A stretch of DNA of 64,000 nt from a virus. The stretch spans positions 1 through 64,000 of the IMG/VR virus record IMGVR_UViG_3300030329_003436; one strand, given 5' to 3'. Positions 2,754 to 61,470 of the stretch are shown here, piece after piece (positions within the stretch are counted from its first letter, which is position 1; the number at the start of each line of letters is the position of its first letter). Both the position numbers and the translations under genes were made by a program. The notes under the pieces are model-generated. The model was not told where the DNA came from and searched no databases. It saw only the letters and a list, made by a program, of their open reading frames with translations.

Positions 2754-3261
2754 TGAATTAGACAGAGTAACTCAAAAAAATCAAGAAGAGCTTGAAGAAC
2801 AACTGATCCGTAATAATTACGGGCTGGTAGTTTCTCAAGCTCTTTTATTTTTTAAAGACACGTCAAAACACTATACACTAGAAGATTGTATTCAGGTTGG
2901 CTTAGTAGGGTTATTAAAATCTATAAGAAAACATGATCCTAAAAAGTCTAAGTTTCCAGTGTACGCAACGGTGTGTATAAAAAATGCAATATCCAGCTTT
3001 GTAAAAAAACATAGTAAAAAGAACAAGGTTGTGTTTGATACAAAAGCACTTAATAGCTCATTAAATGGCAGACACTATCTTGACAAAGATAATATTGCAA
3101 GCTATCTGACTAAACTGAATGAGCAGGAATTGTTCATAATAACCAAGAAGATGGAAAACTACACTAACTCTGAGATATGCGAGATACTGTCTTGCACTAG
3201 AAACGCCTTAAAGAATAAAATTACAGATATAATTAATAAGCTTGAAGAACATAACAAATGA
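2746..3261 (+). CDS. Phage-encoded sigma70-family sigma factor (region 2 plus degenerate region 4)
   Basis: NYGLVVS, EDCIQVGLVGLLKSIRKHDP..SKFPVYATVCIKNAI; C-terminal HTH YTNSEICEIL. Confidence 0.85.
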   Translation: MSDELDRVTQKNQEELEEQLIRNNYGLVVSQALLFFKDTSKHYTLEDCIQVGLVGLLKSIRKHDPKKSKFPVYATVCIKNAISSFVKKHSKKNKVVFDTKALNSSLNGRHYLDKDNIASYLTKLNEQELFIITKKMENYTNSEICEILSCTRNALKNKITDIINKLEEHNK

Positions 3262-4895
3262 GAAAAAAGAGAGTTCTATTCTGCTCAGAGGCTACCTACT
3301 TAAACACTGGCTATGCAACATACGCCAGAGAGGTTTTAAGCAGGCTACATGCTTCTGGAAAATATGAAATTGCTGAATTTGCTAGCTATGGAAAAGATGG
3401 CGACCCTCGCAATAATGACATTCTGTGGAAATTCTACCCCAACCAGCCTCATGATAGTGATTTAGCAGGCAACCAAGAATACGCTTCAGTTCCAACCAAT
3501 CAGTTTGGAGAATGGAGATTTGAAAACGTTCTTTTGGATTTTCAGCCAGATTTCGTTTGTGACATAAGAGATTTCTGGATGATAGATTACCAAGAAAGGT
3601 CTCCTTTTAGACGGTTGTTCAATTGGGTTATAATGCCAACCGTAGACGCCTCACCACAAAACGAACAGTGGATAGCTACGTATTCTAATGCAGATGCCGT
3701 TTTTAGTTATTCGGACTGGGGAGGTTCGGTATTAAAGAATGAGTCCAATGGCAAGGTCAATTACTTAGGCACTGCATCTCCTTCTGCTCACGCTATCTAT
3801 AGTCCAGTTGAAGACAAGCAAGCCCATAAAGAAAGAATGGGGTTCGACGCAGACACTCTTATACTTGGAACAGTGATGCGCAATCAAAGAAGAAAGCTGT
3901 TCCCAGACCTGTTTGAAGCCTTTAGAAAATTCTTAGATATGTACGACAAGAACGACGTGTTTTTGTATTGTCATACTAGTTATCCAGATTTGGGATGGGA
4001 TCTGCCTAAGCTGATAAATCGTTACGGGCTATCAAGCAAAATCCTAGTGACATATTCTTGCCCACAATGCAATTACGCCTTTCCTATGTATTTTTGTGAC
4101 GCCAAAACAAAATGCCCTCGCTGCGGAGGAAAGTCTGCTGGCCTATCCAACGTACAAAATGGTGTTGAATATGATTTTCTATCTGAAATATTTAATACCT
4201 TTGATTTGTATATACAGTATGCAAACAGTGAGGGTTTTGGGATGCCGCAGGTTGAAGCCGCCGCCTGTGGAGTACCTGTTGCTAGCGTAGATTACTCGGC
4301 AATGAGTAGCGTAGTGAGAAAGCTTGAGGGCTACCCAATCAAACCCCAAGCCCTATATAACGAACTAGAAACCGGCTGCAATAGAGCAGTTCCAAATAAC
4401 GATGCAGCCGCCAAGGTTATATATGATTTTTTCAATTTGTCTGAAGAAGAACGAAAAGAAAAAAGCAAGCAAACAAGGTCTGCTTTTGAAAAGCACTACC
4501 AGTGGGATGCGACCGCCAAGATGTGGTCTGATTATTTTGACTCTGTAGAAATTAGACCTCGTGAAGAAACATGGCTATCACCACCAAGAATACATAAGTT
4601 TCCTAGAGACGTTCCCGAACATCTTGACACTAGACAATTAGCCCAGTGGCTCATAGTCAACGTCCTTGGCGAACCAGAACGATTGAACTCTTATTTTGAA
4701 TCTAGATTAATGAGAGATCTTAACTGGGGTATACACATCCAAGGAACTGGAGAAATGTATCTGAACGAAGATTCTTATGCTTTTGTAAAACCGGACTATC
4801 AAAAATTTACAATTGAAGAGGCTTTCAATATGATGGCTGGTCTTTGTGCTAGAAGAAATGAATGGGAAAAAACAAGGGTGGAAATTGTAAGATGA
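3258..4895 (+). CDS. GT-B glycosyltransferase (GT4-like) with Zn-ribbon insertion
   Basis: TGYA N-terminal motif, RNQRRK, SEGFGMPQVEAAACG; CPQC...CPRC insert. Confidence 0.88.
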   Translation: MRKKRVLFCSEATYLNTGYATYAREVLSRLHASGKYEIAEFASYGKDGDPRNNDILWKFYPNQPHDSDLAGNQEYASVPTNQFGEWRFENVLLDFQPDFVCDIRDFWMIDYQERSPFRRLFNWVIMPTVDASPQNEQWIATYSNADAVFSYSDWGGSVLKNESNGKVNYLGTASPSAHAIYSPVEDKQAHKERMGFDADTLILGTVMRNQRRKLFPDLFEAFRKFLDMYDKNDVFLYCHTSYPDLGWDLPKLINRYGLSSKILVTYSCPQCNYAFPMYFCDAKTKCPRCGGKSAGLSNVQNGVEYDFLSEIFNTFDLYIQYANSEGFGMPQVEAAACGVPVASVDYSAMSSVVRKLEGYPIKPQALYNELETGCNRAVPNNDAAAKVIYDFFNLSEEERKEKSKQTRSAFEKHYQWDATAKMWSDYFDSVEIRPREETWLSPPRIHKFPRDVPEHLDTRQLAQWLIVNVLGEPERLNSYFESRLMRDLNWGIHIQGTGEMYLNEDSYAFVKPDYQKFTIEEAFNMMAGLCARRNEWEKTRVEIVR

Positions 4896-6016
4896 AGGTT
4901 TTATACATAGGTCATTATAGAGAAGGTACGGGCTGGGGAAGAGCCGCTATAGACTACATACTGTCTATGGATGCCGCTGGCATCGAGGTTGTGCCTAGAG
5001 CCGTAAAACTTAACGACAGACAGCCGGAACTTCCTCGAAGGCTGTTGGAGTTAGAAAATCAGGAATCTTCCGGGTGCGATGTTTGCATACAGCATGTTCT
5101 TCCTCACTTAATGGATTTTCACCCAAAGTTCAAAAAGAACATAGCCTTGTATGCTACCGAAACAAGTAATTTCAAATATTCAACTTGGCCTAGAAAAATA
5201 AACCTGATGGACGAGGCTTGGGTTATCAATAATCAAATGGTTGAAGCTTCTGTTAATAGCGGGATCACAGTGCCTATAAAGGTAATTCCGCACGCGACAG
5301 ACTTTGAGAAATTTACACAGAGACATAAAAAGCTTGACCTTCCAATACCAGACGACAACTTTATATTTTATACGGTTGGCGAATTCAACAAGAGGAAAAA
5401 CTTAAGAGCTTTTGTTACGGCTTTTCATTTAGAGTTTGAGAGAAATGAACCGGTTTCAATTTTAATAAAGACAAACAAGGCTGGTCTAAGCGCAGACCAA
5501 TGCGCCGAACAAGTTCAGAGTCTTTGTAACGAAATTAAACAAGGGTTAAAACTGTACCCATCTTCCAATGACTACAAAGAGGATTTTATAATAACTGACT
5601 ATTTGTCCGAAAAAGATATAGAAAGGGTTCATCAGTCTTGTGACTGTTTTGTTATGCCAAGCCATGGGGAAGCATGGTGCATCCCTGCGTTTGACGCGAT
5701 GGGGTTTGGAAACACTCCTATATGCACTAATACTGGCGGTATGGCCGATTTTTTGCGGAAAAGCGCCAACATAGGAGCGGGCGGTGTTTTGGTGGATGCA
5801 AGATTAGAACCCGTCACAGGAGCATTAGATACGCTATCTGATATCTTCACAGGTAAGGAAGAGTGGGCGTCTATTGATATACAAAAACTTAGAAAAGCCA
5901 TGAGAGACATGTACGAGTCTGACAGAACAGACATGAAAACTCACGGTCTGGAACGAGCTATGAAATATTCCCATAGGGAGATTGGCAATGTAATAAAAGA
6001 GGCACTAAATGCTTAG
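4892..6016 (+). CDS. GT4-like glycosyltransferase
   Basis: TGWG, RKN, FVMPSHGEAWCIPAFDAMGFG; ATGA coupling to previous gene. Confidence 0.88.
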   Translation: MKVLYIGHYREGTGWGRAAIDYILSMDAAGIEVVPRAVKLNDRQPELPRRLLELENQESSGCDVCIQHVLPHLMDFHPKFKKNIALYATETSNFKYSTWPRKINLMDEAWVINNQMVEASVNSGITVPIKVIPHATDFEKFTQRHKKLDLPIPDDNFIFYTVGEFNKRKNLRAFVTAFHLEFERNEPVSILIKTNKAGLSADQCAEQVQSLCNEIKQGLKLYPSSNDYKEDFIITDYLSEKDIERVHQSCDCFVMPSHGEAWCIPAFDAMGFGNTPICTNTGGMADFLRKSANIGAGGVLVDARLEPVTGALDTLSDIFTGKEEWASIDIQKLRKAMRDMYESDRTDMKTHGLERAMKYSHREIGNVIKEALNA

Positions 6017-7019
6017 TCCGGTATCCTCCATAACCAGAGCGTCTGCTAGAAAAATAAATGACCCTCTGAATATACTGACCTTTCCTACACACGAAAGGTA
6101 CGAAACGCTTTTATGTAAAACGGGGCATAATTTCTATGCCTATAGAGCAGAAGGTATAAAAGATTGGAATACGAACAATGCCGCTATTCCAGAAAACTAT
6201 ACTCTTTTAGATCCCACGCTGGGAGATAAACAAATACCGGCCTATCTGGATTTTGATCTAGTTTTGTCTCAAAACAAGTTTGGTCAATTCCAACTGGCCG
6301 AACCAATAGCGAAACGGTTTCATCTTCCTTTGGTTAGTCTTGAGCATACGCTTCCAGTCCCCTATTGGCCTCCCGAAGTTTTAGAGCAAACCAGAACAAT
6401 GCAGGGTGACATCAACGTATTCATTTCAAAATATAGTATTGGCGCTTGGGGGTGGGATGCGCCAAATACTAGTGTCATTACTCATGGGGTAGATACAACA
6501 TTATTTAAGCCAGCAGAAAAAGAAAGAGAGAACCATGCTCTGTCAGTGGTAAATGATTGGATCAACAGGGATTGGTGCTGCGGTTTTAACATATGGCAAA
6601 ACGTATCAAAAAAATATCCAACAAGAGTGATAGGCGACACGCCGGGATTATCGAAACCAGCATCCAGTATAGAGGAATTGGTGGATGCCTACCAAACCAG
6701 TAGAATATTTCTGAACACTTCTACAATATCACCTATTCCAACTTCTTTACTTGAAGCTATGGCTTGCGGATGTGCTGTTGTGTCTACAGCTACCTGTATG
6801 ATACCAGAAGTAGTAGAGCATGGAGTTAACGGCTTTTTAGGGGAGACGGAAGAAGAATTAGAAGAATATTTAGTAGAACTTCTGAATGATGAGGATTTGG
6901 CCACGAAATTAGGAAATGAGGCTAGAAAGACTATAGAAAGCAGATTTTCAGAAGATCAATTTGTTGGCAGATGGGAACATCTGCTTTATGAAGCGTCAAA
7001 AGTATGTTTTAGAGGTTAA
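6009..7019 (+). CDS. GT4-like glycosyltransferase
   Basis: HGVDTTLF, FLNTS...SLLEAMACG, EVVEHGVNGFL. Confidence 0.88.
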   Translation: MLSPVSSITRASARKINDPLNILTFPTHERYETLLCKTGHNFYAYRAEGIKDWNTNNAAIPENYTLLDPTLGDKQIPAYLDFDLVLSQNKFGQFQLAEPIAKRFHLPLVSLEHTLPVPYWPPEVLEQTRTMQGDINVFISKYSIGAWGWDAPNTSVITHGVDTTLFKPAEKERENHALSVVNDWINRDWCCGFNIWQNVSKKYPTRVIGDTPGLSKPASSIEELVDAYQTSRIFLNTSTISPIPTSLLEAMACGCAVVSTATCMIPEVVEHGVNGFLGETEEELEEYLVELLNDEDLATKLGNEARKTIESRFSEDQFVGRWEHLLYEASKVCFRG

Positions 7020-7020
7020 G

Positions 7021-7485
7021 ATGAAAGTAAGCATAACTGTAGGTTCACCGTTCCGAAAAAATGGTTATCTAAATATAGACCCTATAACAAAACCGGATGG
7101 TCTAGATGTAGACATTAGAAATTTAGATGACGTAGTAGACGACGCAGAGTGTACCGAATTTATAGCCGAAGATGTTCTCGATTACCTTGAAAGCTCTGAA
7201 GCTGATAAGGTATTAAATCACTGGATAGGCAAGCTTAGAAGAGGTGGTAAGATTGTGATAGGAGGCACGGACGCATACGAAGCCTCTAAAATGTTTTATC
7301 AGCAAAAAATTGATTTAGAAGAGTTTAACAAATTAGTTCACGGGGCATTTTCTCAGCCGTGGGATGTAAGGTTACACAATGTAACGTTAGAATACATGCA
7401 ATCAAAGCTAGAAAATGCGGGATTAAAAGTAACAAAAAAAAGACTTGATGGTTATCGGATAGTCATAGAAGGAGAAAGAGAGTGA
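7021..7485 (+). CDS. Small class I SAM methyltransferase-like protein (degenerate motif I)
   Basis: ITVGS..KNGYLNID, DIRNL, EDVLDYL, W..KLRRGGKIVI pattern, as in glycan-cluster methyltransferases. Confidence 0.65.
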   Translation: MKVSITVGSPFRKNGYLNIDPITKPDGLDVDIRNLDDVVDDAECTEFIAEDVLDYLESSEADKVLNHWIGKLRRGGKIVIGGTDAYEASKMFYQQKIDLEEFNKLVHGAFSQPWDVRLHNVTLEYMQSKLENAGLKVTKKRLDGYRIVIEGERE

Positions 7486-8291
7486 CATTTCAACAAAACC
7501 AGCCGCAGGGCTTGACAACATCATGTAAAGACTGTGTATTCTCAGAAAAAGAAGAAAAAACACAAACCGGATGCTCTCTTAATAGAATTGAAAAATTCAA
7601 AGATAGGGGTGTGTTTGTTGTAGAAGCAGAAGATCTCGAAGAAAACGAATTCTATGTCATCGAATCTTGGTGCGCAGCATATAGAGAAGAGCCATGGAAA
7701 GAGGGTGTGGACGATATCCACACCAAGGTTAGAGAAGAATACCAAGTAAGAGTTGGCTATCTTGTCATTGCAGACGAGGAGTCCGCGACTGACTACTCTA
7801 GTAAACTGCAAAAAACCCTAGATTCTATTTTGGCTCAATCTATTTCGCCCAGCTACATGCTTATGATTAACAAAATTCCAGACGAGCATGTAAATATTAT
7901 ACAATCTACGGTAACAGTAATGGATGGCGTAGATTTTGAATATAAAATTACCTCTATGTATGAAAAAGGCGCAACAGACGATGAAGCCATAGACGAAGTT
8001 TTTAATAAGGTTAAAAACGGATTTTACATGGTGGTCAAGGTCGGTCATGAATTGAGACCAGATCTTACGAAAAAATTAAATCAGTCCATAAATGAAGAAC
8101 TTCATAAAGTTGCTTACATAGATGGCTACGACGGCGTTAATGGAAGAACTGCTCAGGCAGCTATACATAAACACTTAAACGGTAATGTTGTTAAACCGTT
8201 AAAAGAAAAACTGAAAGAAGTCTCCAGTTTTGAAGAAAAGTCTAGCCTCACCTATACATGGGAAGACATTGACCAGCTATGCATAGAGTAA
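7482..8291 (+). CDS. Hypothetical protein: N-terminal Cys cluster plus degenerate GT-A-like region
   Basis: CKDC..C..C at the N-terminus; LQKTLDSILAQ resembles a GT2 N-terminus, but there is no DxD. Confidence 0.5.
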   Translation: MTFQQNQPQGLTTSCKDCVFSEKEEKTQTGCSLNRIEKFKDRGVFVVEAEDLEENEFYVIESWCAAYREEPWKEGVDDIHTKVREEYQVRVGYLVIADEESATDYSSKLQKTLDSILAQSISPSYMLMINKIPDEHVNIIQSTVTVMDGVDFEYKITSMYEKGATDDEAIDEVFNKVKNGFYMVVKVGHELRPDLTKKLNQSINEELHKVAYIDGYDGVNGRTAQAAIHKHLNGNVVKPLKEKLKEVSSFEEKSSLTYTWEDIDQLCIE

Positions 8292-9055
8292 CAATCCTTA
8301 TAGCCTGCTATAACGACGAAGACTATATAGATAGTGCCATAGAAAGTGCCTTTAACCAAGATTACCAAGGCCCAATGACTATTTGTGTTATTGATGATGG
8401 TTCTACAGACAGGTCTCTGGAGATAGCCAAAGGCTATTTTAGCAAACCGCTTTCTGACAGCTACCGTGATAATGAAGTATGGTTTCAGGAAGACAGGGGA
8501 AGGTTTGGAAACACCAAATATGTTGTAATGACAAAGCCCAATGGTGGCCCCAGCGATGCAAGAAACTGGGGTATAGGCTATGCTTGGCCTCATACAGATA
8601 TCTATGCAGTACTCGACGCAGACGACCAGATGTACGAGAACAAAATATCTACATGTGAAAAAGTTATGTCTGAAGATATGGAAACGGTAGGAGTGGTATA
8701 TGCTGATTATGATACACACCATATCGACACAGACAAAATAATAAGAGAATTTAAAGAACCTTACAGCAGAAAAAGGCTAATAGAAGAATGCGTTGTTCAT
8801 AGCGGTTCTTTAATCAACAAAAAGGCTCTTGACAACACGCATGAAGACACGGGGTACTATGATTTTACCATGAGAACTTGCGAGGACTACGATCTGTGGA
8901 TGAGAATAAGTGAGAAGTTTATGCTGGTTCATGTTCCTCAGTCGCTAACGCTTGTTCGGGTAACTGGAGACAATTCCAGTTTTGTAGTTAATCAAGAAGT
9001 CTGGCAAAGAAACTGGTCTAGAGTAATGGAAAAAATGCAAGACAGGCTTCAATGA
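8279..9055 (+). CDS. GT2 glycosyltransferase
   Basis: ILIACYN, DDGSTD, NGGPSDARN, LDADD, EDYDLW. Confidence 0.93.
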   Translation: MHRVTILIACYNDEDYIDSAIESAFNQDYQGPMTICVIDDGSTDRSLEIAKGYFSKPLSDSYRDNEVWFQEDRGRFGNTKYVVMTKPNGGPSDARNWGIGYAWPHTDIYAVLDADDQMYENKISTCEKVMSEDMETVGVVYADYDTHHIDTDKIIREFKEPYSRKRLIEECVVHSGSLINKKALDNTHEDTGYYDFTMRTCEDYDLWMRISEKFMLVHVPQSLTLVRVTGDNSSFVVNQEVWQRNWSRVMEKMQDRLQ

Positions 9056-9768
9056 TAGTAAAAAATAGATTTGTAACTACAGCCCAGAAGAAGCTTTCTC
9101 CGGGTCAGGCTCAGGAAAGCCCTCTTACTGTAATCATCCCTATAGCGGGAGTTGGTCACAGAATGAAGTCTTATGGGCCTAAATGCCTTCTCCCGGCAAA
9201 CAAAAAAGAAAGCATAATACAAAAAAGCATATCTACAGTAAAAAAAGTTTTTCCATATGCAGAGATCATAGTGGTTGTTGGCTTTGAGGCCGACAAAGTA
9301 ATCAAATGCATACCGGAAGACGTTAGAATAGTAGAGAACCAATTTTATGAAACTACCAATGTGGTAGAAAGTTTGAGACTAGCATTAAACTGCTCAATCA
9401 ACACAAACATTTTAATATTGTATGGCGACTTAATTTATAACACACACACCATAAGCGATATATCAAAAGATGAATCCTGCATCGTTATAGACTCAAAAAA
9501 TCGTTTCAAGGCAGAAGAAGTTGGTGTAACGGTAGTCGAAGGATCTGTTACCAATTTTGCATACGGACTTCCAACTAAATGGTCTCACATTATATACATG
9601 GCCGAAAGAGAGTCTAGATTTTTTAAGAAGCTTTGTGGTGACAGAAAAAGAAACAAGATGTACCCCTTTGAGATATTTAATTATATGATATCCAAGGGGT
9701 TTAGTTTTAAAGCAGTAGAACCTAGCGGAATGAATATCCGAGAAATAGATTCTATGAAAGATTTGTAG
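9052..9768 (+). CDS. LicC-like nucleotidyltransferase (cytidylyltransferase-like)
   Basis: IAGVGHRM...PKCLL, YGDL, C-terminal EID..DL. Confidence 0.8.
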   Translation: MIVKNRFVTTAQKKLSPGQAQESPLTVIIPIAGVGHRMKSYGPKCLLPANKKESIIQKSISTVKKVFPYAEIIVVVGFEADKVIKCIPEDVRIVENQFYETTNVVESLRLALNCSINTNILILYGDLIYNTHTISDISKDESCIVIDSKNRFKAEEVGVTVVEGSVTNFAYGLPTKWSHIIYMAERESRFFKKLCGDRKRNKMYPFEIFNYMISKGFSFKAVEPSGMNIREIDSMKDL

Positions 9769-9769
9769 A

Positions 9770-10813
9770 ATGAAAATACTTATATCTAGCGATGGCCCCC
9801 ACGCACATTACTATATTCGACTAGGCTGGGCTAGAGCCTTAGAAGCCTGCGGTCACGATGTTTATATTTGGGATATAGAGAGTATTCCAACGTTTGATAT
9901 GTTTGATGACTTTGAGCCAGACATATTTATGGGGCAGACGTACAATCTCAATAAGTCCGTTTATAAATGCATAAAGGAAAGACCACATTTAAAGGTGGTT
10001 ATGCGAGGTTCTGACTGGGGCGATATACAAAAAGAAATCGACAAAGAAAAATATCCAATACTAACAGCAAGAGATGATGAAATAAAGCTGGTAGAACAGC
10101 TCAAAAAAGAGACCCAAAAACCCGACTTTATCCACAACCACTACCATGACAATTGGATAACCAAGACGCATAATAAGTGGAACGACATAGGTGTTAGGCC
10201 AGTATCATTGATTCATGCAGCAGACGTGTTTGAGTACTGGGGCGGTCAAATCGTAGAGCATCTCAAAAGTGACGTATCATTTATCGGGGGGTATTGGCCA
10301 TACAAAGCTAAGTGTCTGGATAAATACATGCTCAGGCTATGCCATCCTGTTGGAAAGTACAATATAAAGATATGGGGTTCCAACTGGCCGGTTGTTCAGT
10401 ACATGGGCAGGATTGCTGGCGATCAAGCTAGGCATGTTTTTCGTTCTGCAACAGTATGTCCTAATGTTAGTGAGCCTCACTCTCAAGATTTTGGCTACGA
10501 CATAATTGAAAGACCGTTCAAGGTGTTAATGAGTGGTGGCTTCTGCATTTCTGATTATGTTGAATCCATGTCAAAAGATGTATTTAATAATGACGAGATA
10601 ATTTTTGCGAAAACACCAGAAGAGTTTGAAACCCTTATTAAGTATTATGCAGCTCACCCGGAAGAAAGAGAGCCTTATATACAGAGGGGTCAAAAGTGCG
10701 TTCTGGAAAAACACACCTACTTCCACAGAATGGCAACAATGTTTCATGAACTAGGGTTGGAGAATGAAGCCGTTAAAACAATTCAGGTTCTGGAAGGGAT
10801 GATTTCTGCATGA
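9770..10813 (+). CDS. CgeB-like GT-B glycosyltransferase
   Basis: DVSFIG, ERPFKV...GGFCISD, HTYFHR. Confidence 0.82.
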   Translation: MKILISSDGPHAHYYIRLGWARALEACGHDVYIWDIESIPTFDMFDDFEPDIFMGQTYNLNKSVYKCIKERPHLKVVMRGSDWGDIQKEIDKEKYPILTARDDEIKLVEQLKKETQKPDFIHNHYHDNWITKTHNKWNDIGVRPVSLIHAADVFEYWGGQIVEHLKSDVSFIGGYWPYKAKCLDKYMLRLCHPVGKYNIKIWGSNWPVVQYMGRIAGDQARHVFRSATVCPNVSEPHSQDFGYDIIERPFKVLMSGGFCISDYVESMSKDVFNNDEIIFAKTPEEFETLIKYYAAHPEEREPYIQRGQKCVLEKHTYFHRMATMFHELGLENEAVKTIQVLEGMISA

Positions 10814-14894: not shown

Positions 14895-14895
14895 T

Positions 14896-14916
14896 TATAA
14901 TATTGGTGTACATATA
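14896..14916 (+). promoter_or_regulatory. Possible internal promoter of the glycan island
   Basis: The largest gap in the island contains TATAAT and TGGTGTACATATA, a variant of the TGGTGTATAATA motif seen before structural genes. Confidence 0.4.
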
Positions 14917-14956
14917 ACAAATCACTACAGTATAGGCATAGACACAAGGGAAGACT

Positions 14957-17216: not shown

Positions 17217-17220
17217 TGAC

Positions 17221-17985
17221 ATGAATATTTTATATACAACCACATTTAACGACAAGTTATTCAATGCCACTGGACGAGGCATGATTACATCCTTTGTTCG
17301 TTGTAAAACAGAGGGTGAAATGCTTATTGCCCACGAGGGGGTTGAGCTTCCCAAGCATAGAAAATTTATAGAATACGACCTGTCACAAGACGAGTTTCTT
17401 AATCGCTGGTTAAAAGAAAACGAAGACGTGATACCTGTAGACTTGGGTGGCAAGTTTGAAGGCGTATTTGAAAATAAGTTTAGATACAGGGCTAGTCAAT
17501 GGTTTAGAAAAATACCAACCCTTAAAAAGGCATTGGAACATGACTATGATGCCATAGTCTTTGTAGACTCTGATGTAATATTTAAGTTCGGGACATACAA
17601 AGAGAATAAATCCGCCCTCACCTCAAACATTATCTCAGAGGTTTTTGGAGACTGCGGGGTCTTTTGTCACTACGGAAAGGGAAGAAGGGCAAGAGGTCTC
17701 GGTGTAGAATGTGGCTTTGTTGGGTTTCATATGACCAATGGTGGTAGGGAGTTTCTTGAGATTGTAATAGACATATTCGACAGCGGAAAATTTCGAGAAT
17801 ATGAAAGATGGGACGATAGCTACATATTTGGAGAGGTTATAAAATCTCACCCGGAGATAAAAGTAAACGATTTGGTAGAAAACGAACTGGAGTGCGATGT
17901 GGTTGAAAGAGGGGTTTTTGATTCCTTTATCACCCACGACAAGGGAGTACACTGGAGAGAGCATGGTTTTGAAAGCCCCGGTTAG
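17221..17985 (+). CDS. GT-A glycosyltransferase-like protein
   Basis: VFVDSDV (DxD), ECGFVGF, WDDSYIF, HDKG. Confidence 0.7.
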   Translation: MNILYTTTFNDKLFNATGRGMITSFVRCKTEGEMLIAHEGVELPKHRKFIEYDLSQDEFLNRWLKENEDVIPVDLGGKFEGVFENKFRYRASQWFRKIPTLKKALEHDYDAIVFVDSDVIFKFGTYKENKSALTSNIISEVFGDCGVFCHYGKGRRARGLGVECGFVGFHMTNGGREFLEIVIDIFDSGKFREYERWDDSYIFGEVIKSHPEIKVNDLVENELECDVVERGVFDSFITHDKGVHWREHGFESPG

Positions 17986-18715
17986 CATAATAAACAAGAG
18001 CTACAATCAGCGCAGTTCTGTTGTTTGCGGGGCTTTTGCCAAAGGCTGTTGTGGATCAACCATGTCATTAAAGATGTGGTTTGATTTATGGATGAAGCGT
18101 CAAAACCCTCCGAGAATAGCCGCTTATGGAGTTCTGTATGGTGGAGAGACGGTAATTCAGAACACGCCAAAATACTGGCATATTGATCATGGATATTTTG
18201 GACGTTCTACAGACCCAGACTTATATGATGGATATTATAGAATAACCCACAATAATTTTTGGCACAACGGCTCTGGAGACCATACTTGGGATAGATTTAA
18301 CGGCCTAAATGTAGAGCTAAAAAACTGGAGGAAGTCTGGAAGTCATATTGTAATAGTTCCACCCTCAAAACACATGGCTTCAGTACTAAACTTACAGACA
18401 TGGCTAGAAGAAACGATTTTTAAAATTAAAAAACATACGGATCGAAAGATCTTGGTTTCCACAAAATATAAAAACCCGATGTCAAAGGTTATAAAAAACG
18501 CTTGGTGCGTCGTGGCGGATCATTCAAATTCCGCAATAGACGCTATGGTACAAGGCATTCCCGCAATTTTCACGAACCCAGCCAGAAAGCTAGGCTCAAT
18601 AGAGGGTATAGAAAATCCCCCTATGGACAGAGAGTTTTTTAAGAACCTAGCTCATCAGCAATGGACTCTGGATGAAATTAAATCAGGAAGAGCATGGGAG
18701 AATTTAAATGAGTAG
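17963..18715 (+). CDS. KpsS/KpsC-like protein 2
   Basis: IDHGYF, HIVIVPPS, HSNSAIDAMVQGIP, QWTLDEI; paralogous to 15625 and 19289. Confidence 0.6.
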   Translation: MVLKAPVSIINKSYNQRSSVVCGAFAKGCCGSTMSLKMWFDLWMKRQNPPRIAAYGVLYGGETVIQNTPKYWHIDHGYFGRSTDPDLYDGYYRITHNNFWHNGSGDHTWDRFNGLNVELKNWRKSGSHIVIVPPSKHMASVLNLQTWLEETIFKIKKHTDRKILVSTKYKNPMSKVIKNAWCVVADHSNSAIDAMVQGIPAIFTNPARKLGSIEGIENPPMDREFFKNLAHQQWTLDEIKSGRAWENLNE

Positions 18716-19292
18716 ACAAGATAGATACAATTATATAACAGAAGAAATACATAAATGCAAACCGTCAACAATACTGGAGATTGGAACTCATGTGGGTCTT
18801 ACGGCTAGAATAATGATAGAAGCCGCAATGGTTCATAAAGACGACGTTTTCTATTACGGGTTTGACATGTTCGATTTTATGACCGAAGAAATAGCTGTAG
18901 AAGAGTATCATGGCAAAAGCCTTCCTACGCTACAAACAGCGTCAAAAAGACTTCGTGGTTTTCCACATAAACTAAAAATGGGAAACACGCAGAAAACACT
19001 ACCTAAATTTAAACCAGACAGACCCATAGACTTTGTTTTTATTGACGGGGGACATTCTGTAGAAACAATCCAAAGCGACTGGGACAGCATAAAAAAATTG
19101 ATCCACAAAGATACAGTTGTTATATTTGACGATTATTATAATGAAACAGAAGAGGTAGGATGCAAACCTGTCGTAGATTGCTTGGGTGATGAATACGTTG
19201 TAGAAAAATTATACACTTGGGAGAGAACCGACGAAGAAAAGTTTACTAAGGAAGTTTTCGACCTTACTCTCATTAAAGTTACACTAAGATGA
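18708..19292 (+). CDS. Class I SAM methyltransferase (Methyltransf_24-like)
   Basis: ILEIGT, YGFDMF, DFVFIDGGHS, IFDDY. Confidence 0.88.
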   Translation: MSRQDRYNYITEEIHKCKPSTILEIGTHVGLTARIMIEAAMVHKDDVFYYGFDMFDFMTEEIAVEEYHGKSLPTLQTASKRLRGFPHKLKMGNTQKTLPKFKPDRPIDFVFIDGGHSVETIQSDWDSIKKLIHKDTVVIFDDYYNETEEVGCKPVVDCLGDEYVVEKLYTWERTDEEKFTKEVFDLTLIKVTLR

Positions 19293-20188
19293 TAGGAATA
19301 TTTCAGAACACGGGTAAAGACGCCCTACACAAACAGACCGTGACAATGGATGCCGTAAAAAACGGAATAAGAAATCTAGGGCATGAGTATTTTTCCACTA
19401 CCATCGAAGAGTACAGACGGTGTGATATTGCAATAGTTTGGGGTTCTCCCAAAAACATTAGAGCAGACTCCTACTTCTTAAAGAACATATACGATTGCCA
19501 AAAACGAAATGGCGGTAAAATTATTGTTCTTGAGAGAGGGTTTCTCAAAAGAGAGGATTACTATTTGATTGGGTGGGATTGTCCGGGGGGATGTGGAGAT
19601 TATAAAAACGATAACATGCCCTCCGACAGATTTGAAGAGCTTGACATTCAAGTAAAGCCTTGGAAACAAGAGCAGGGTGAAAATCTCAGCGTTCTTGTGT
19701 GCGGACAAATTCCTTGGGATCAAAATATACAAGACATAAGCCTAAGAAGCTGGTGCAGATTTGTTTCACACCAACTAAACACAAAGGTTGATAAAAATTG
19801 TAAAATTAGATATAAACCGCACCCAAAAATAATATCACATAAGGGGTATGGACGCCGTTACGACAAGGCAATAGACATGACTTCTTTTGGTATGGCGAAC
19901 GTAGAAGAAGAAAATCTATCAAAGGCAATAGAAGAAAAGAAGATTGATATTGTTATCTGTTATAGTTCAAATTCTGCTGTTGAGGCCGTGATCAATGGAA
20001 CGCCAGCCATTACCTTTAGTGAATCTTCCATGGCTTGGGATGTAACTTCTCATGAAATTAACCATCAAACTATAACAAACCCCTTTATGCCAGATAGAAC
20101 ACAATGGCTAAACAATCTGGCGTATACTCAATGGAATTTAGAAGAGATATCACAGGGTCTTCCGTTTAAACACTTAGGAATAATTTAG
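19289..20188 (+). CDS. KpsS/KpsC-like protein 3
   Basis: LERGFL, CGQIPWD (QxxxD), YKPHP, SSNSAVEAVING. Confidence 0.72.
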   Translation: MIGIFQNTGKDALHKQTVTMDAVKNGIRNLGHEYFSTTIEEYRRCDIAIVWGSPKNIRADSYFLKNIYDCQKRNGGKIIVLERGFLKREDYYLIGWDCPGGCGDYKNDNMPSDRFEELDIQVKPWKQEQGENLSVLVCGQIPWDQNIQDISLRSWCRFVSHQLNTKVDKNCKIRYKPHPKIISHKGYGRRYDKAIDMTSFGMANVEEENLSKAIEEKKIDIVICYSSNSAVEAVINGTPAITFSESSMAWDVTSHEINHQTITNPFMPDRTQWLNNLAYTQWNLEEISQGLPFKHLGII

Positions 20189-20200
20189 AGGAATTATGCA

Positions 20201-20578
20201 ATGGGTCATAAAACATTAACAGGTGCTATTCAGGGAAAATTTTGGGGTACAACACGCTGCTTTTTTGAGAACTGCACAAGCGAGGTGCATTACATCGAAG
20301 CGGTAAAGGGTGGATACTGCTCTCGACATCATCACGAGAATAAATGGAACCGTTTTATTGTGCTTGAAGGCGCTCTTAAGGTTATTATATATAAGCAGGA
20401 TAGTGAGGATGAGACAATTTTAACAGACGGGATGTTTTCGGATGTTCCGCCCGGAGTAGACCATCGTTTTGAGGCTTTAGAAGATACGAAAGCGTTAGAA
20501 GTTTATTGGATTGATGGACTAGACCCTTCAGATATAGTGAGAAAAGATACGGGTGGACTTAACAAGCCTGAAAATTGA
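20201..20578 (+). CDS. Cupin protein (sugar isomerase-like)
   Basis: SRHHH.NK...VLEG and VPPGVDHRFEA cupin motifs. Confidence 0.8.
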   Translation: MGHKTLTGAIQGKFWGTTRCFFENCTSEVHYIEAVKGGYCSRHHHENKWNRFIVLEGALKVIIYKQDSEDETILTDGMFSDVPPGVDHRFEALEDTKALEVYWIDGLDPSDIVRKDTGGLNKPEN

Positions 20579-21248
20579 TAAGCCTGTTCTTTTAATTGGT
20601 TCGTCAAACAGTATAGAAAAGTTTGATGGTTATCAGGACTACTTCACTTTGTCTACCGGAAAATCACTTTATGCCATCGACAAGGTTGACATTGTGGTTT
20701 CTTTGGATCTGATTCGGATTATACATAATATATCGAACTTTAGAAAAAGATGGCGACATCACCTAATTCCACATTGCATATCACATCACCTATGGGGGGA
20801 AAGGCAAAAGGAAACGGAGATACTAAACCCTTCTTTTGGTGTCTTTCTCTATACCAGAAGACCCGCATATTCAAATATGTTCTTCAATCTAGAGGACTTC
20901 TGTTCATTCAAAGAAAGCAAGGGTGTATATGAAGGACTGAACATATCCCATCCAATTGTATCCTTTGAAAAAGCAGACACAATTATTGACTTTCAAAGAT
21001 TCAATACTGTAAGATTTTTAAGAGAAGATGTTGATAACATTCAAGCAATGAAGAATAACGATGGCGTATTAAGAAATATGTCTAGTAGTTTACACTTTCT
21101 TATCAATCTTCTTTGGTTGAACGGCGTACAACAAATTAAAACAATAGGCATAACAGAAGAGCATAAAAGTTGGAAAGACACCGAAAGCATGTTCTCACTG
21201 TACAACATAAAATACGAAAGGCTCGAAGATGAAATTGATCTCTCATAG
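20553..21248 (+). CDS. Hypothetical protein with weak DUF115/sialyltransferase-like similarity
   Basis: VLLIGSSNS and SSLHFLINLLWLNGVQQIKTIG resemble the GxGPS and LAYYxGxxxIxLxG motifs. Confidence 0.4.
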   Translation: MDLTSLKIDKPVLLIGSSNSIEKFDGYQDYFTLSTGKSLYAIDKVDIVVSLDLIRIIHNISNFRKRWRHHLIPHCISHHLWGERQKETEILNPSFGVFLYTRRPAYSNMFFNLEDFCSFKESKGVYEGLNISHPIVSFEKADTIIDFQRFNTVRFLREDVDNIQAMKNNDGVLRNMSSSLHFLINLLWLNGVQQIKTIGITEEHKSWKDTESMFSLYNIKYERLEDEIDLS

Positions 21249-21699
21249 AGGTAACATTAGAGGCCGACACCCAGATTTAGAAAATGACCCCGCGTATATC
21301 AAGCAGGCTCTGTCTCTTGGGTATGACGTAGAGATTGACGTATGGAAAATAAATGGTAACTGGTTTTTAGGACATGACGATCCGTCTTATCCGATTTATC
21401 TTAACTTCCTAATGAACCCCAAGCTTCTCTGTCATGCAAAAAACCTATCCGCTTTAGATGGGATGTTAGTGCATACAAATATTCATTGCTTCTATCATGC
21501 GGACGACCCATATACGCTTACTAGTAATGGGTACATAGTTAGTTACCCCGGATACGAGGTTACAAACAGGACTATATGCATGAAACCAGAGTTGGCCAGA
21601 CCCAATTTAAACTGCTATGCAATTTGTTCTGATTATATTGAACTGTTTAAGAAAATGGATACGGGTTCTGTAAGCGTGGGCTTCAATGAAACACGATGA
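21229..21699 (+). CDS. Short glycerophosphodiester phosphodiesterase-like protein
   Basis: ISHRGN, EN, VEIDVW, LGHD, HAKN, ICSD. Confidence 0.8.
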   Translation: MKLISHRGNIRGRHPDLENDPAYIKQALSLGYDVEIDVWKINGNWFLGHDDPSYPIYLNFLMNPKLLCHAKNLSALDGMLVHTNIHCFYHADDPYTLTSNGYIVSYPGYEVTNRTICMKPELARPNLNCYAICSDYIELFKKMDTGSVSVGFNETR

Positions 21700-22360
21700 T
21701 GTAACAATAGTACTACAGGGGCCATTGCACACCAAAGGAGGGTCGTTGTGTCGGGGTATACATAACATACCCACGTACATGAAGTTTGTTGGCGCTTCAA
21801 TTATATCGACTTGGAAAAACGACGGCATTAAACCGACCAAAAGGTTTTTAGCCAGCAACAACACGACCTACATTGAAGATGACCCAGAAAAGTATTCCAA
21901 AGTTTTTAACTGGATGAACGTAAATTTTCAGGTGGCGTCTTCATTAAATGGAATGAGAAAAGTAAAAACAAAATATGTTATAAAAGTAAGGTGTGATGAA
22001 AAGTATGAAGACATGTCTGTTTTTATAAAAACGATGAAAGAAAATCCAGAAATGTTGACTACACAGGAACCATTTTATAGGGATGTTACGGAGAAGAAAT
22101 ACATTTCTGATCATGTTATGGGTGGATTGACAACAAAAATGACGGACATGTTTGAAGAAGCCTATGAGATATGCGAAAAGTTCGACGTTCCAAAAAAAGA
22201 TTACGCCCCCGAAAATATATTGAAAAAGAGTTTTGATGGCGATAATGTTTGGGTGTCAATATTTGATTTTGGCGACTTCTTATTCAAAATGAATACCGAG
22301 AGAATAACAAGAGCAGCGATTAAAAAAATGAAGGGAAATTTTAAATGGCAAAAATCCTAG
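21686..22360 (+). CDS. WavE-like lipopolysaccharide synthesis protein
   Basis: IVLQGP, ISTW, NVNFQ..S.LNG, YVIKVRCD, SDH. Confidence 0.75.
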   Translation: MKHDDVTIVLQGPLHTKGGSLCRGIHNIPTYMKFVGASIISTWKNDGIKPTKRFLASNNTTYIEDDPEKYSKVFNWMNVNFQVASSLNGMRKVKTKYVIKVRCDEKYEDMSVFIKTMKENPEMLTTQEPFYRDVTEKKYISDHVMGGLTTKMTDMFEEAYEICEKFDVPKKDYAPENILKKSFDGDNVWVSIFDFGDFLFKMNTERITRAAIKKMKGNFKWQKS

Positions 22361-23280
22361 TAACGGGCGGTGGCGGATATGTAGGCAATGTCTTGTGTCG
22401 CCATCTTCTCGATAAAGGGTATCGGGTAAAATGTGTTGACAATTTTCATAAGGGTCAATGCGATGCTATTATACCCCTAGCTACAAACCCCAATTTTGAG
22501 TTTGAGTATGGGGATGTTACAAGACTAGAACAAATGAAGGAGGCTATCCTTGGGTGTGACGCTGTTATTCACCTTGCTGCTATTGTTGGCTTTCCGGCTT
22601 GCAAATCCCAGCCCTCGCTCGCCACGGCGGTAAACATAGATGGCACAAAAAACATGCTGGAAGCCCGCAAATCCTATAATCCCAAAATGCCATTCGTTTA
22701 CGCCTCCACAGGCAGCGTCTACGGCAAAGTGGAGGGTATTTGCACAGAAGAGTCCCCACTAAATGCCGTGTCGCTCTACGGCGTAAATAAGCGTGTTGCA
22801 GAGGAAATGGTGGCCGCACAAGATAATACAGTCTCATTTAGGTTTGCTACAGGGTTTGGTGTTAGCCCATGTATGCGGGTGAACTTGCTCGTAAACGATT
22901 TTGTTTATCAGGCAATCACAAATAAGATACTTACTATTTTTCAAGCAGACTTCCGGCGAACTTTTATCCATGTAAGAGATATGGCAAAGGCTTTTACTAT
23001 GGGCGTTGAGCATATGGGTAACTGGAAACATAAGGTTTATAACTGCGGGGCAAACGACCTAAATTGGACAAAAAGGGAGCTTGCGGAATATGTCAAGGAA
23101 AAAACAGAATGCTTTGTACATTATGAAGAAATTGGAAAAGATGCTGACCAAAGAGACTACGAAGTGAGTTATGATAAGTTAGAAGCCGAGGGGTTTAACT
23201 GCGACGTAGACATGAAGACCGGCATCAACGAATTAATCAAAGTAGCACCAATATTACAGATTAGGCATCAGTATTCATGA
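22345..23280 (+). CDS. NAD-dependent nucleotide-sugar epimerase/dehydratase
   Basis: VTGGGGYVG, IHLAAIVG, ASTGSVYG, YGVNK. Confidence 0.92.
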   Translation: MAKILVTGGGGYVGNVLCRHLLDKGYRVKCVDNFHKGQCDAIIPLATNPNFEFEYGDVTRLEQMKEAILGCDAVIHLAAIVGFPACKSQPSLATAVNIDGTKNMLEARKSYNPKMPFVYASTGSVYGKVEGICTEESPLNAVSLYGVNKRVAEEMVAAQDNTVSFRFATGFGVSPCMRVNLLVNDFVYQAITNKILTIFQADFRRTFIHVRDMAKAFTMGVEHMGNWKHKVYNCGANDLNWTKRELAEYVKEKTECFVHYEEIGKDADQRDYEVSYDKLEAEGFNCDVDMKTGINELIKVAPILQIRHQYS

Positions 23281-24230
23281 TTGATATCAAAGACTCAAAA
23301 GTTTTAGTTACGGGCGGCGAAGGCTTTTTTGGTCGTGCTATTTGCGATCAGGTTCGACAAAGAGACGCAGAGCCTATAGTCTTAAGTCATAATAAAGTAA
23401 ATCTAACCGACTTAGAGCAGGCCATTCGTTTTCTAGACGAAACACGTCCAGACTACTGCATTCATGCCGCAGGATATAACGGGGGTATTGAATTTAATAG
23501 AATGTACCCCGCAGATATCCTGTATGCTAACGCGGTTATGGGGTTAAACATTCACCATGCTTGCGAATACATGCAGGTCAAGAAGCTTGTTTCTATAATG
23601 ACATCCTGTGCCTATCCAGATACCGGAATGGAAGTGCTGGAAGAAAACACTTTTTGGGACGGCCTTCCTAATGGAACAATACGCGCGCATGGTTTAGCCA
23701 AGCGAATGCTACAAGCTGCGGCAGAAGCCTATAACAAACAATATGATTTTAAAAGTGTGGCTGTCTGTGTCACAAATCTTTATGGAAGGTATGATACGTT
23801 TAATTTAACTCGCACAAAAGTCGTAGGTGCGCTTATTCGCAAATTCGTAGAAGCCAAACAGGACGAGCATGATTCTGTAGAATGCTGGGGAACCGGCGAT
23901 CCTATGAGAGAATTTATGTATGTCGATGACGCAGCAAACGCTGTTGTCCAAGCGTTAGAAAAATACGATGACGTTACCCTTCCATTAAATATAGGAACTG
24001 GCAGTGACATATCAATCAAACAACTGGTAGAATATATTGTAGCTATAGTAGGATATGAAGGTGAGGTAGTCTGGAATACAGACAAACCCGATGGACAAAT
24101 GAAAAAGCTCTTAAGTGTAGATAGGATGAAAGAGCTTATAGAATTAGATCCTATGAATATCCGAGATGGTCTTACTGCAACCATTAAATGGTATGTTGAC
24201 AATAAAGAAAAAGCTGATGCAAAAGCGTAA
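23277..24230 (+). CDS. GDP-fucose synthase (Fcl/WcaG)-family SDR with variant active site
   Basis: TGGEGFFG, GGI..N..YPAD, SCAYP, NLYG.YD.F, WGTG...REFMYVDD, KPDG. Confidence 0.85.
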   Translation: MIDIKDSKVLVTGGEGFFGRAICDQVRQRDAEPIVLSHNKVNLTDLEQAIRFLDETRPDYCIHAAGYNGGIEFNRMYPADILYANAVMGLNIHHACEYMQVKKLVSIMTSCAYPDTGMEVLEENTFWDGLPNGTIRAHGLAKRMLQAAAEAYNKQYDFKSVAVCVTNLYGRYDTFNLTRTKVVGALIRKFVEAKQDEHDSVECWGTGDPMREFMYVDDAANAVVQALEKYDDVTLPLNIGTGSDISIKQLVEYIVAIVGYEGEVVWNTDKPDGQMKKLLSVDRMKELIELDPMNIRDGLTATIKWYVDNKEKADAKA

Positions 24231-24693
24231 AAAAACAGGTATAATTTTAGAAGACCTGAATGCCAGTCAGGTTTCTTATTACGCCATAAAGAATATAAAT
24301 AAATATTTAGAAGATAGCTTAGATGATTTTGTATTGTTCTTTGAGAGCGCTGGGAACTCAGTTATACAACCCCAATGCTCTTCTATGGGAATAAATGAGT
24401 TGTGGAGCTTTGACGGTACTGCAATAGCAACTACTGTATCAACCTGCCTTTCTCTAGCACAAAGTCATTCGACATTAGACAAATATTTTTATGTATGGGA
24501 CTTAGAATGGTCTAGACCTCGTGGTGTAGACTATGATTACATAGTGACGGCTTTTAACAATCCTGAAATCAAGCTAATAGCAAGAAGCAAGGATCATGCG
24601 AAAGCCATAAAAAACTATTGTAATAGAGATGTTTGCGGAGTGGTTCCAAACTTTTGTGTAGAAAATTTAATGAAAGTAATTAATAATGAGTAG
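24217..24693 (+). CDS. Hypothetical protein resembling a GT-B N-terminal lobe (WsaF_N-like)
   Basis: IATTVST...KYFYVWDLEW...LIARS...VVPN pattern. Confidence 0.45.
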   Translation: MQKRKKTGIILEDLNASQVSYYAIKNINKYLEDSLDDFVLFFESAGNSVIQPQCSSMGINELWSFDGTAIATTVSTCLSLAQSHSTLDKYFYVWDLEWSRPRGVDYDYIVTAFNNPEIKLIARSKDHAKAIKNYCNRDVCGVVPNFCVENLMKVINNE

Positions 24694-26633: not shown

Positions 26634-26655
26634 ATCTTCTTATAAGTCAGTGGAC

Positions 26656-26694
26656 AAAAAAACCCCCGTTTCAGTGATGAGGCGGGGGTTTTTT
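26656..26694. terminator. Bidirectional intrinsic terminator between the convergent blocks
   Basis: A7-CCCCCGTTTCA-GTGA-TGAGGCGGGGG-T6. Confidence 0.9.
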
Positions 26695-26737
26695 ATTGCG
26701 TGGCATGAGCTAAACCACTTAACTTGAACACCAATGA

Positions 26738-27473: not shown

Positions 27474-27485
27474 TATTATACACCA
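27474..27485 (-). promoter_or_regulatory. Putative late promoter motif TGGTGTATAATA
   Basis: Identical 12-mer upstream of the tail tube gene (61459-61470); no -35 consensus. Confidence 0.65.
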
Positions 27486-61458: not shown

Positions 61459-61470
61459 TATTATACACCA
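61459..61470 (-). promoter_or_regulatory. Putative late promoter motif TGGTGTATAATA
   Basis: Exact match to 27474-27485; intergenic, about 45 nt before the ATG. Confidence 0.65.

Follow-up and report, generated by a model that had tools for sequence, protein, structure and literature searches.

The 64,000-nucleotide stretch of viral DNA examined here (the window, bases 1-64000 of the 97,582-bp IMG/VR record IMGVR_UViG_3300030329_003436, CheckV completeness 64%) carries a block of 26 co-oriented open reading frames (ORFs) on the + strand, labelled g005-g030 in this analysis, which fills positions 3258-24693 (21,436 bp) and forms an entirely cytoplasmic glycan-building locus, present throughout the phage lineage to which the record belongs. 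As to the destination of the glycan, we see an even chance that it decorates the phage's own structural proteins (virion glycosylation). We infer this acceptor from the enzyme set, the lack of membrane steps, the modular variability of the locus and the presence of further sugar-related loci within the virion operon, and favour it on these grounds over remodelling of the host envelope, modification of another cytoplasmic target, and DNA glycosylation.

All but three junctions within the cluster overlap or abut, with the largest gap measuring 62 nt (14895-14956), which agrees with a preliminary description of this DNA as a ~21-kb array of 26 nearly contiguous genes. That description had also counted at least 12 glycosyltransferase (GT)-like genes from many families, and we found evidence for 12, with solid support for ten and at least seven families represented: three GT4, one GT2, two CgeB-like, one GT25-like, one GT8-like, three paralogues resembling the KpsC/WbbB transferases of Kdo (3-deoxy-D-manno-oct-2-ulosonic acid), and one WavE-like enzyme. 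Two more genes, g009 and g020, may encode additional GTs. Three short-chain dehydrogenases/reductases (SDRs, starting at 10810, 22345 and 23277), two nucleotidyltransferases (9052 and 13512) and a cupin (20201, matching both Cupin_2 and WbuC) were likewise recovered as described. The remaining assignments fared less well: the methyltransferase at 18708 is solid and that at 6961 weak, the proposed dioxygenase at 16587 is reduced to a partial, sub-cut-off Kdo_hydroxy match, and the proposed phosphodiesterase was dropped, none of the 26 proteins having matched such a family.

Hydropathy was assessed with a 19-residue Kyte-Doolittle scan, which found no membrane protein and no N-terminal hydrophobic segment among the 26 cluster proteins, in line with the earlier remark that no obvious transmembrane (TM) protein was to be seen. 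Single hydrophobic peaks occurred only in g007 (aa 247-265) and g028 (aa 68-86); these lie within the Rossmann cores of the GT1 and SDR domains, respectively. No multi-pass membrane protein is encoded in the whole 97.6-kb contig. Because the contig is incomplete, we also scanned a complete relative with the same genome layout (G001, 161,265 bp, CheckV completeness 100%), where no ORF has four or more hydrophobic segments and the tape-measure protein shows three peaks; among the scanned ORFs (at least 40-70 aa), the sole case with at least four segments was the tape-measure homologue of a second relative, G002. In 27 related loci, no multi-pass protein was seen on the coding strand, the hydrophobic ORFs there being short antisense frames only. 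Family searches gave a similar picture. The priming transferase Bac_transf (PF02397) was found neither in our contig nor in four relatives, one of them the complete 161-kb genome, and no WecA-like multi-TM candidate was found in the contig or the complete relative. The ABC ATPase PF00005 is absent from the contig and from the five relatives checked, the complete one among them, and neither an ABC ATPase nor a multi-TM permease of a KpsMTED-type exporter occurs in the phage genomes. A GtrABC module is also lacking: the only GT2 (g010) reaches a maximum 19-residue hydropathy of 0.78 and has no multi-TM partners. Thus, the absence of a flippase, polymerase, exporter, priming transferase and TM protein, first noted for the cluster alone, extends to the contig, the 27 related loci and the complete 161-kb relative. 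Export or ligation genes elsewhere in the genome, which had been named as grounds for abandoning the virion proposal, were looked for in the contig and the complete relative and not found.

Comparison with 27 IMG/VR loci and five whole records revealed a conserved-flank, variable-middle layout, which is that of an O-antigen or capsule locus. All close relatives have the nine genes g005-g013, at 50-75% amino acid identity, similar to that of the neighbouring DnaE piece (55-68%), and g028-g030 end the locus in every close relative whose sequence extends that far. The genes in between are present, absent or replaced depending on the relative, and the size of the cluster varies accordingly from 11 to 27.5 kb, with some relatives carrying 11-12 kb (the core, the 3' end and few or no cassette genes) and others 25-27.5 kb. 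Even distant relatives, in which the DnaE piece is only 44% identical, retain at this site a homologue of g005 (34-47%) along with some six further genes. For 69 ORFs that occur in relatives but not here, a Pfam census matched 47 families; these ORFs include sugar aminotransferases, formyl- and acetyltransferases, FkbM and C-methyltransferases, a cytidylyltransferase, and GT29-, GT47- and RXYLT1-like enzymes, and no export family was among the 25 of the 47 families that were listed. Replacement can be seen at single slots. The position of g019, between the first Kdo-transferase paralogue and g020, is occupied in relatives by an unrelated ORF of similar size (e.g. L018:17480-18148); g019 and this positional equivalent share no similarity, and a weak alignment of the relatives' ORF shows a 'VDVGAN' segment, from which we read it as FkbM-methyltransferase-like. 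In sequencing run X11, from an otherwise near-identical strain, the C-terminal part of g009 (7785-8232) was of the same length but diverged, and there was almost no cover over the g023 region (19266-19932), which points to strain-level exchange inside single cluster genes. Clade-specific clusters of 6-33 genes have similarly been described for the fibril glycans of Megavirinae (PMC10117803).

Sugar-related genes are not confined to this locus: beyond the window, the virion operon contains two further sites. The first is a GDP-mannose 4,6-dehydratase gene (Gmd, genome 89823-90884, 366 bits), which sits at the head of the operon between a second sigma factor and genes for HNH, ERCC4-like and large-terminase proteins. 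Together with g029 (23277-24230, +), an SDR resembling GDP-L-fucose synthase (Fcl; NF047922 by far the best model at 264 bits, below its 500-bit cut-off), it completes a pathway of the GDP-fucose type, the predicted product being GDP-fucose or a related 6-deoxyhexose. The chlorovirus PBCV-1 encodes the same pair of Gmd and epimerase/reductase for its capsid glycan (PMC4691112). In the complete relative G001, the stretch from the sigma factor to the terminase contains, beside Gmd, a MotA/ExbB/TolQ-like protein and an ornithine cyclodeaminase/mu-crystallin gene (232 bits; L031:11191-11739 and L031:14009-14926), both missing from our contig. Small hydrophobic ORFs at this place in G001 were considered as PglC-type priming transferases and rejected, being MotA/ExbB-like or unnamed, with PF02397 absent.

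The second site is an enzyme island (genome 69371-73451; L002:6371-10451) that comprises a GT34-type GT (E 8.6e-20), two Methyltransf_24 genes, a sulfotransferase (E 5.4e-10) and two unknown ORFs. It lies downstream of the major head protein gene g065, whose product resembles the major head protein of phage G, and is flanked by genes for large Ser/Thr-rich fibre-like proteins: g061 (1876 aa, 25% Ser+Thr), g064 (26%), g054 (22%) and g053 (28%). A BppU_N protein and a fibre with an endosialidase-type chaperone domain are encoded thereafter. The O-methyltransferase of the main cluster, g022 (18708-19292, +; Methyltransf_24, E 7.1e-15), is paralogous to the two methyltransferases of the island, its profile matching g057 at 5.8e-10 and g059 at 1.8e-4. 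Relative G003 has kept the island (35-85% identity); in its place G001 and G004 carry other ORFs, with a methyltransferase-like ORF still there in G001. Taking the main cluster and the virion-operon loci together, about 31 of the 91 ORFs on the contig are sugar-related. In addition, relatives G001, G002, G004 and G005 carry extra GT4-like and SDR genes in their replication/early region (e.g. L037:4911-5999 and L036:12724-13716); as this region lies past the end of our contig, the number of sugar genes in the complete genome is probably higher still.

No gene of the locus is more widely conserved than its first, g005 (3258-4895, +), which encodes a retaining GT of family GT4 (Glycos_transf_1). 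Its E325-x7-E333 motif has both glutamates invariant in 21 aligned sequences, and its AlphaFold2 (AF2) model shows a GT-B fold (mean pLDDT 88.5) for which GT4 structures top the Foldseek list. Two features are added to this fold, namely a C-terminal helical domain and a Cys4 zinc-ribbon-like insert at about aa 258-292 (window 4029-4133), which is kept in most relatives, with three of the four cysteines gone in one sub-clade (e.g. P0093, P0111 and P0113). The best fold match in the PDB was 3oy2, chlorovirus NY-2A B736L (E 1.2e-17, TMt 0.79, 17% identity), followed by MshA, BshA and PimB'. GDP-mannose is the best-bound ligand of B736L, whose proposed activity is the transfer of a GDP-borne 6-deoxyhexose (PMC4691112). 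A tblastn search of phage records with g005 gave only six weak matches, which included four cultured phages. In the Synechococcus siphovirus S-CBS4, the matching gene lies between the portal and head-protease genes together with a galactosyltransferase and a methyltransferase; in Microcystis phage Mae-JY09, it comes right after the capsid gene; and in Tetrasphaera phage TJE1, it is located just 5' of the terminase genes, accompanied by an epimerase, a nucleotidyltransferase and a methyltransferase.

Within the variable cassette, g018 (15610-16602), g021 (17897-18715) and g023 (19289-20188), all on the + strand, are mutual paralogues (E 1e-38 to 1e-81; E 3.6e-62 from g018 to g021 and E 1.4e-81 to g023), which are absent or fewer in some relatives. 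A family match was obtained for g023 (Capsule_synth, E 4.9e-4). The AF2 model of g018 is of moderate confidence (mean pLDDT 68.5); among solved retaining Kdo-transferases it aligned best with 6mgb (KpsC 2,4; Z 12.0, 259 aligned residues), followed by 6mgd (KpsC 2,7; Z 10.8), 5fa0 (WbbB; 10.3) and 9yfx (KrkA; 9.5), all at 11-15% identity, with generic Rossmann matches at Z 9 or less. Foldseek also placed 6mgd at the top. The modelled fold of g018 is closest to that of the retaining beta-Kdo transferases, represented by the capsule-linker enzymes KpsS/KpsC (GT107) and by WbbB (GT99). No genes for CMP-Kdo synthesis were seen.

These findings can be arranged into a scheme in which the Gmd and Fcl-like pair, the two nucleotidyltransferases and two more SDRs are predicted to supply activated sugars, to be used by about 12 soluble GTs, with tailoring by the O-methyltransferase, the cupin and the hydroxylase-like ORF, as judged from family assignments. 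Chain assembly would proceed step by step in the cytoplasm, with a structural protein of the phage as acceptor, for which the Ser/Thr-rich fibre-like proteins around the second island would be the best candidates, and g005 might catalyse the first or an early, acceptor-proximal step, a guess that we base on its conservation. The virion would thereby acquire glycans that are strain-specific, methylated and possibly sulfated, comparable to those with which chloroviruses and Megavirinae coat their capsids and fibrils. The proposal that virion proteins are the acceptor, already made in the preliminary description, thus gains circumstantial support from the virion-operon sugar genes, the conserved core, the B736L-like fold of g005, the retention of g005 at the same site even where the DnaE piece is only 44% identical, and the location of its nearest (weak) homologues in S-CBS4 and Mae-JY09 within head modules. 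We also put forward, tentatively and as a somewhat improbable extension, that the lineage has 'virion serotypes', in which an O-antigen-like locus with a swappable cassette coats head- or neck-proximal Ser/Thr-rich fibres with methylated, sulfated glycans containing fucose and Kdo, without any membrane step.

Several observations weigh against a virion acceptor. The main cluster is co-oriented with the replication genes and not with the virion genes, lies 3' of dnaE, ssb and sigma on the replication strand, and is without any copy of TGGTGTATAAT, a probable phage promoter motif described below. Among the virion proteins, none was found with a pure Ser/Thr C-terminal acceptor tail; Ser+Thr make up 9% of the major head protein g065, which lacks a Ser/Thr tract, and the richest 20-residue windows, in g053 and g061, hold 11 Ser/Thr. 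Ser/Thr richness is itself common in fibre proteins and not specific. The matches of g005 in cultured phages are weak (~21% identity), and that in S-EIVl adjoins a primase. Families named after lipopolysaccharide (LPS) or capsule synthesis are present (GT25, WavE, WbuC and KpsC-like), and in LPS and capsule pathways it is usual for peripheral GTs to work on lipid-linked intermediates while lacking TM segments of their own. Lastly, the three Kdo-transferase-like paralogues mirror KpsS and the two KpsC domains, which make a lipid-anchored linker, an analogy that would favour host remodelling.

Remodelling of the host envelope is an unlikely but serious competitor. Here, phage GTs would act on host lipid-linked intermediates, such as undecaprenyl-diphosphate sugars (Und-PP-sugar) or a (lyso)phosphatidylglycerol-Kdo linker, and the product would leave through a host exporter of the ABC/KpsMT type; the altered capsule or LPS might, for example, block superinfection or keep progeny off debris. 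The KpsC/WbbB fold shared by g018, g021 and g023 fits this account, the three single-domain proteins paralleling KpsS, KpsC-N and KpsC-C, as do the LPS/capsule-type character of GT25, WavE, the WbuC cupin and the weak Kdo-hydroxylase match, the co-orientation with early/replication genes, and the resemblance of the conserved flanks and variable middle to surface-polysaccharide loci. Modification of the host surface has also been proposed, as an untested idea, for the clusters of cyanomyoviruses (PMC12801897). Yet the phage has no priming transferase, flippase, polymerase, ligase or exporter of its own, so that it would depend on the host for every membrane step, and on host machinery that tolerates many different strain-specific glycans. 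The core, moreover, shows the conservation of an essential gene set and not of a sporadic accessory island, further tailoring genes lie within the virion operon, the WbbB fold also serves glycan, non-lipid acceptors (PDB 8csf and 8cse), and no lysogeny genes were seen, though no systematic search for them was made.

Since all the enzymes are soluble, the glycan could in principle also be attached to a phage or host protein with no structural role, or be released as a free oligosaccharide or glycoconjugate, with counter-defence, metabolic takeover or a role as storage compound or osmolyte as conceivable purposes. The GT4 relatives of g005 in the PDB do include small-molecule transferases (MshA, BshA, sucrose-phosphate synthase and GlgM), and g005 has a weak match, below cut-off, to the defence-associated Pfam family GT4-conflict (E 0.0015). 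However, at least 12 GTs and strain-specific cassettes point to a long, exposed, diversifying glycan and not to a metabolite, and the virion-operon link would be left unexplained; we consider such a target improbable. Hypermodification of DNA, with the GTs decorating modified bases as in T4 and in phages with glycosylated hydroxymethyl-pyrimidines, appears highly improbable. It had been listed earlier as an alternative and draws on the position of the cluster directly 3' of the exonuclease, DnaE piece and SSB genes and on viral GTs known to build diverse DNA glycans (Pyle et al. 2024, as cited in PMC12619734), but it is weakened by the absence of a ThyA-type hydroxymethylase (PF00303) from our contig and its relatives, including the complete 161-kb genome. 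In addition, twelve GTs, Kdo-transferase-like enzymes, a sulfotransferase and GDP-fucose synthesis far exceed the chemistry of any known DNA glycan, and a variable cassette would be unexpected for a DNA mark.

Virion glycosylation by virus-encoded enzymes is established in giant viruses, and the chloroviruses PBCV-1 and NY-2A and the Megavirinae (PMC4691112, PMC10117803) share with this phage the synthesis of nucleotide sugars, including the Gmd pair, many soluble GTs without TM segments, methyltransferases, clade-specific clusters, and a nearest structural relative of g005 in B736L. In contrast to them, the present virus is a tailed virus of a prokaryote, known from its genes alone, with a single locus of conserved flanks and a swappable middle. 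Among large marine phages, the cyanomyoviruses P-SSM2, S-SCSM1 and S-SCSM2R (PMC12801897) are comparable in having ~13 GTs, epimerases of nucleoside-diphosphate (NDP) sugars and Kdo-related genes of debated function. S-SCSM2R, with 22 sugar genes including 13 GTs, was called possibly the highest in a marine phage, and host-surface or DNA roles were proposed, untested, for these genes (PMC12801897). The present phage differs from them in its long tape-measure protein, which points to a non-T4 tailed phage, in having one contiguous, lineage-core locus instead of scattered accessory genes, and in the lack of homology detected at the level tested (none by tblastn with g012 and six weak matches with g005). 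Mycobacteriophages Che8, Corndog and Myrna use phage-encoded GTs, with a methyltransferase in some, to modify their own capsid and tail-tube proteins (Freeman et al. 2023, as cited in PMC12619734 and PMC12801897). Their O-glycosylation resembles our case in the use of soluble phage GTs, the island with GT34, methyltransferases and sulfotransferase and the Gmd gene lying here within the structural operon; by those citing accounts, it involves 2-4 genes beside structural genes, whereas the 26-gene locus described here lies beside replication genes, and is provided with its own sugar nucleotides, and no C-terminal acceptor tail was identified. The KpsS/KpsC linker of group 2 capsules and the WbbB Kdo cap (PDB 6mgb, 6mgd, 6mgc and 5fa0) agree with the locus in number, with three Kdo-fold paralogues corresponding to KpsS and two KpsC domains, and differ in that KpsM, T, E and D are not encoded here and the paralogues belong to a variable cassette. 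A further parallel concerns g012 and probably g014 (Pfam PF13524), a family-level resemblance only; no other spore-coat genes occur here. CgeB-type GTs of the Bacillus spore crust and coat are cytoplasmic and act on proteins of a particle assembled inside the cell.

The remaining genes of the cluster, all on the + strand, complete the inventory. In the conserved core, g005 is followed by two more GT4 genes, g006 (4862-6016; Glycos_transf_1, E 2e-14) and g007 (6009-7019; Glycos_transf_1, E 2.7e-19), and by the small methyltransferase-like g008 (6961-7485; profile match to the PDB methyltransferase 3hnr, E 0.014), whose true start is probably M21, near 7021. The next gene, g009 (7482-8291), has four conserved N-terminal cysteines and may be a divergent GT-A enzyme, given a profile match to the GT2 g010 at E 0.0024 and an atlas lead to GT2 (0.88). 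The core continues with g010 itself (8279-9055; 258 aa, Glycos_transf_2, E 6.4e-21), the sugar-1-phosphate nucleotidyltransferase g011 (9052-9768; GlmU N-domain/MobA-like, NTP_transf_3 E 1.1e-9 and GlmU-type models), the CgeB-like GT-B enzyme g012 (9770-10813; Glyco_trans_1_2, E 3.1e-26) and the NDP-sugar epimerase/dehydratase SDR g013 (10810-11754; Epimerase, E 2.2e-30). The variable part begins with g014 (11751-12830), without a Pfam match of its own and probably a second CgeB-like GT (atlas Glyco_trans_1_2 clusters 0.94, 193 shared features), and g015 (12793-13515), which is GT25-like (Glyco_transf_25, E 2.9e-6, 27.7 bits against a cut-off of 24). In g016 (13512-14894), a HAD domain of the beta-phosphoglucomutase (bPGM) type is fused to a sugar-1-phosphate nucleotidyltransferase (HAD_2, E 5.3e-26, and NTP_transf_3; bPGM and RmlA/GlmU-type models). 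The GT8-like assignment of g017 (14957-15628), which also lacks a Pfam match of its own, comes from many close homologues carrying PF01501.

Further downstream, g019 (16587-17216) is the tailoring slot in which a Kdo-hydroxylase-like ORF was weakly and partially matched (Kdo_hydroxy, 22.8 bits, cut-off 25). The neighbouring g020 (17122-17985, true start probably near 17221) belongs to an unnamed family of 116 proteins, whose members have no Pfam domain; a conserved D-S-D triplet read from the alignment consensus suggests that it is possibly a GT-A enzyme. The WbuC-type cupin is g024 (20201-20578; Cupin_2 and TIGR04366), g025 and g026 (20553-21699) are two conserved ORFs with homologues in relatives and no family match, and g027 (21686-22360) is a WavE-like GT of the LPS-core type (WavE, E 1.2e-10). 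The conserved 3' end opens with g028 (22345-23280), a GalE-like NDP-sugar epimerase/dehydratase (Epimerase, E 1.6e-40) that is 77-95% identical in relatives, and closes after g029 with g030 (24166-24693), an ORF aligned across relatives and without a PDB or Pfam match. PDB searches by profile or sequence with g009, g014, the g018 family, g017, g020, g030, g019 and g025 gave no significant match, NCBIfam searches of the unnamed ORFs gave nothing usable, and pairwise hhalign comparisons among the cluster families returned low probabilities only.

The cluster amounts to about a quarter of the contig and forms most of a + strand block (69-26633) that encodes a DEDDh exonuclease, a DnaE finger-domain piece, SSB, a sigma-70-like factor, the 26 cluster genes and three small genes, and that converges on the long - strand virion operon. 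Directly 5' of the cluster is the gene for this sigma-70-like factor, g004 (2746-3261, +; Sigma70_r2, E 1.6e-11), the homologue of which is missing in the distant relatives L012-L015 that retain the cluster. A second such factor, g077 (genome 92418-92948, - strand, outside the window), precedes Gmd and the virion operon, and each of the two sigma-70-like factors heads a block starting with sugar genes. A G+C-rich hairpin with A/T runs on both sides lies between the convergent blocks at ~26655-26695 and is likely a bidirectional intrinsic terminator; a similar hairpin occurs near genome 80520-80560, ahead of the TGGTGTATAAT motif of g064. No tRNA genes were found in the window.

The motif TGGTGTATAAT has exactly four copies in the 97.6-kb genome, all of them intergenic, on the - strand and 24-49 nt 5' of a gene: window 27475-27485 (g034) and 61460-61470 (g045), and genome 80500 (g064) and 85987 (portal gene), both outside the window. 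It is conserved at homologous sites in five relatives, where it is also found in the replication block and never at the glycan cluster. We regard it as probably a phage promoter with a perfect -10 box, the argument being its placement, as its count in the window alone is not above chance. The related TGGTGTACATA in the gap at 14895-14956 was considered as a link between the cluster and late promoters and rejected; with three mismatches from TGGTGTATAAT, it was not counted as a copy. In one metatranscriptome, from a sample in which the DNA is present too, g012 is matched by a contig of 371 nt, with a few shorter pieces besides, a weak signal that does not show timing and may reflect DNA carry-over. 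The promoter-motif evidence on timing is neutral as to the target of the glycan.

No close cultured phage was found for this lineage. Megablast of the cluster and tblastn of g012 against 50,697 phage records gave no match, and the terminase is only 24% identical to that of Bacillus phage Basilisk. In marine metagenomes, however, g005 homologues number more than 4188, on contigs of up to 177 kb, and near-identical DNA was found in those of at least six studies. The lineage is one of abundant, uncultured marine tailed phages with a genome of roughly 150-160 kb. A scan of genome contigs with Gmd, aimed at the host, returned only two weak, irrelevant matches.

Large sets of sugar genes in marine phages and virion glycosylation in giant viruses and mycobacteriophages are already established. 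What is added here is the expanded 21-kb locus, its conserved-flank and variable-middle design, the triplet of Kdo-transferase-like proteins with fold support, and the two sugar loci in the virion operon. If the glycan is indeed placed on the virion, complex virus-made particle glycans would not be limited to giant viruses and a few actinophages, and would belong to the core features of a marine phage lineage that is very common, with a bearing on the resistance of marine viruses to decay, their adhesion to particles and host recognition; the locus would also be a source of soluble enzymes for rare sugars. If the host envelope is the target instead, the phage would rewrite the capsule with the cytoplasmic half of the pathway alone. 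Either way, the modular locus provides a testable handle on the role of 'LPS genes' in marine phages.

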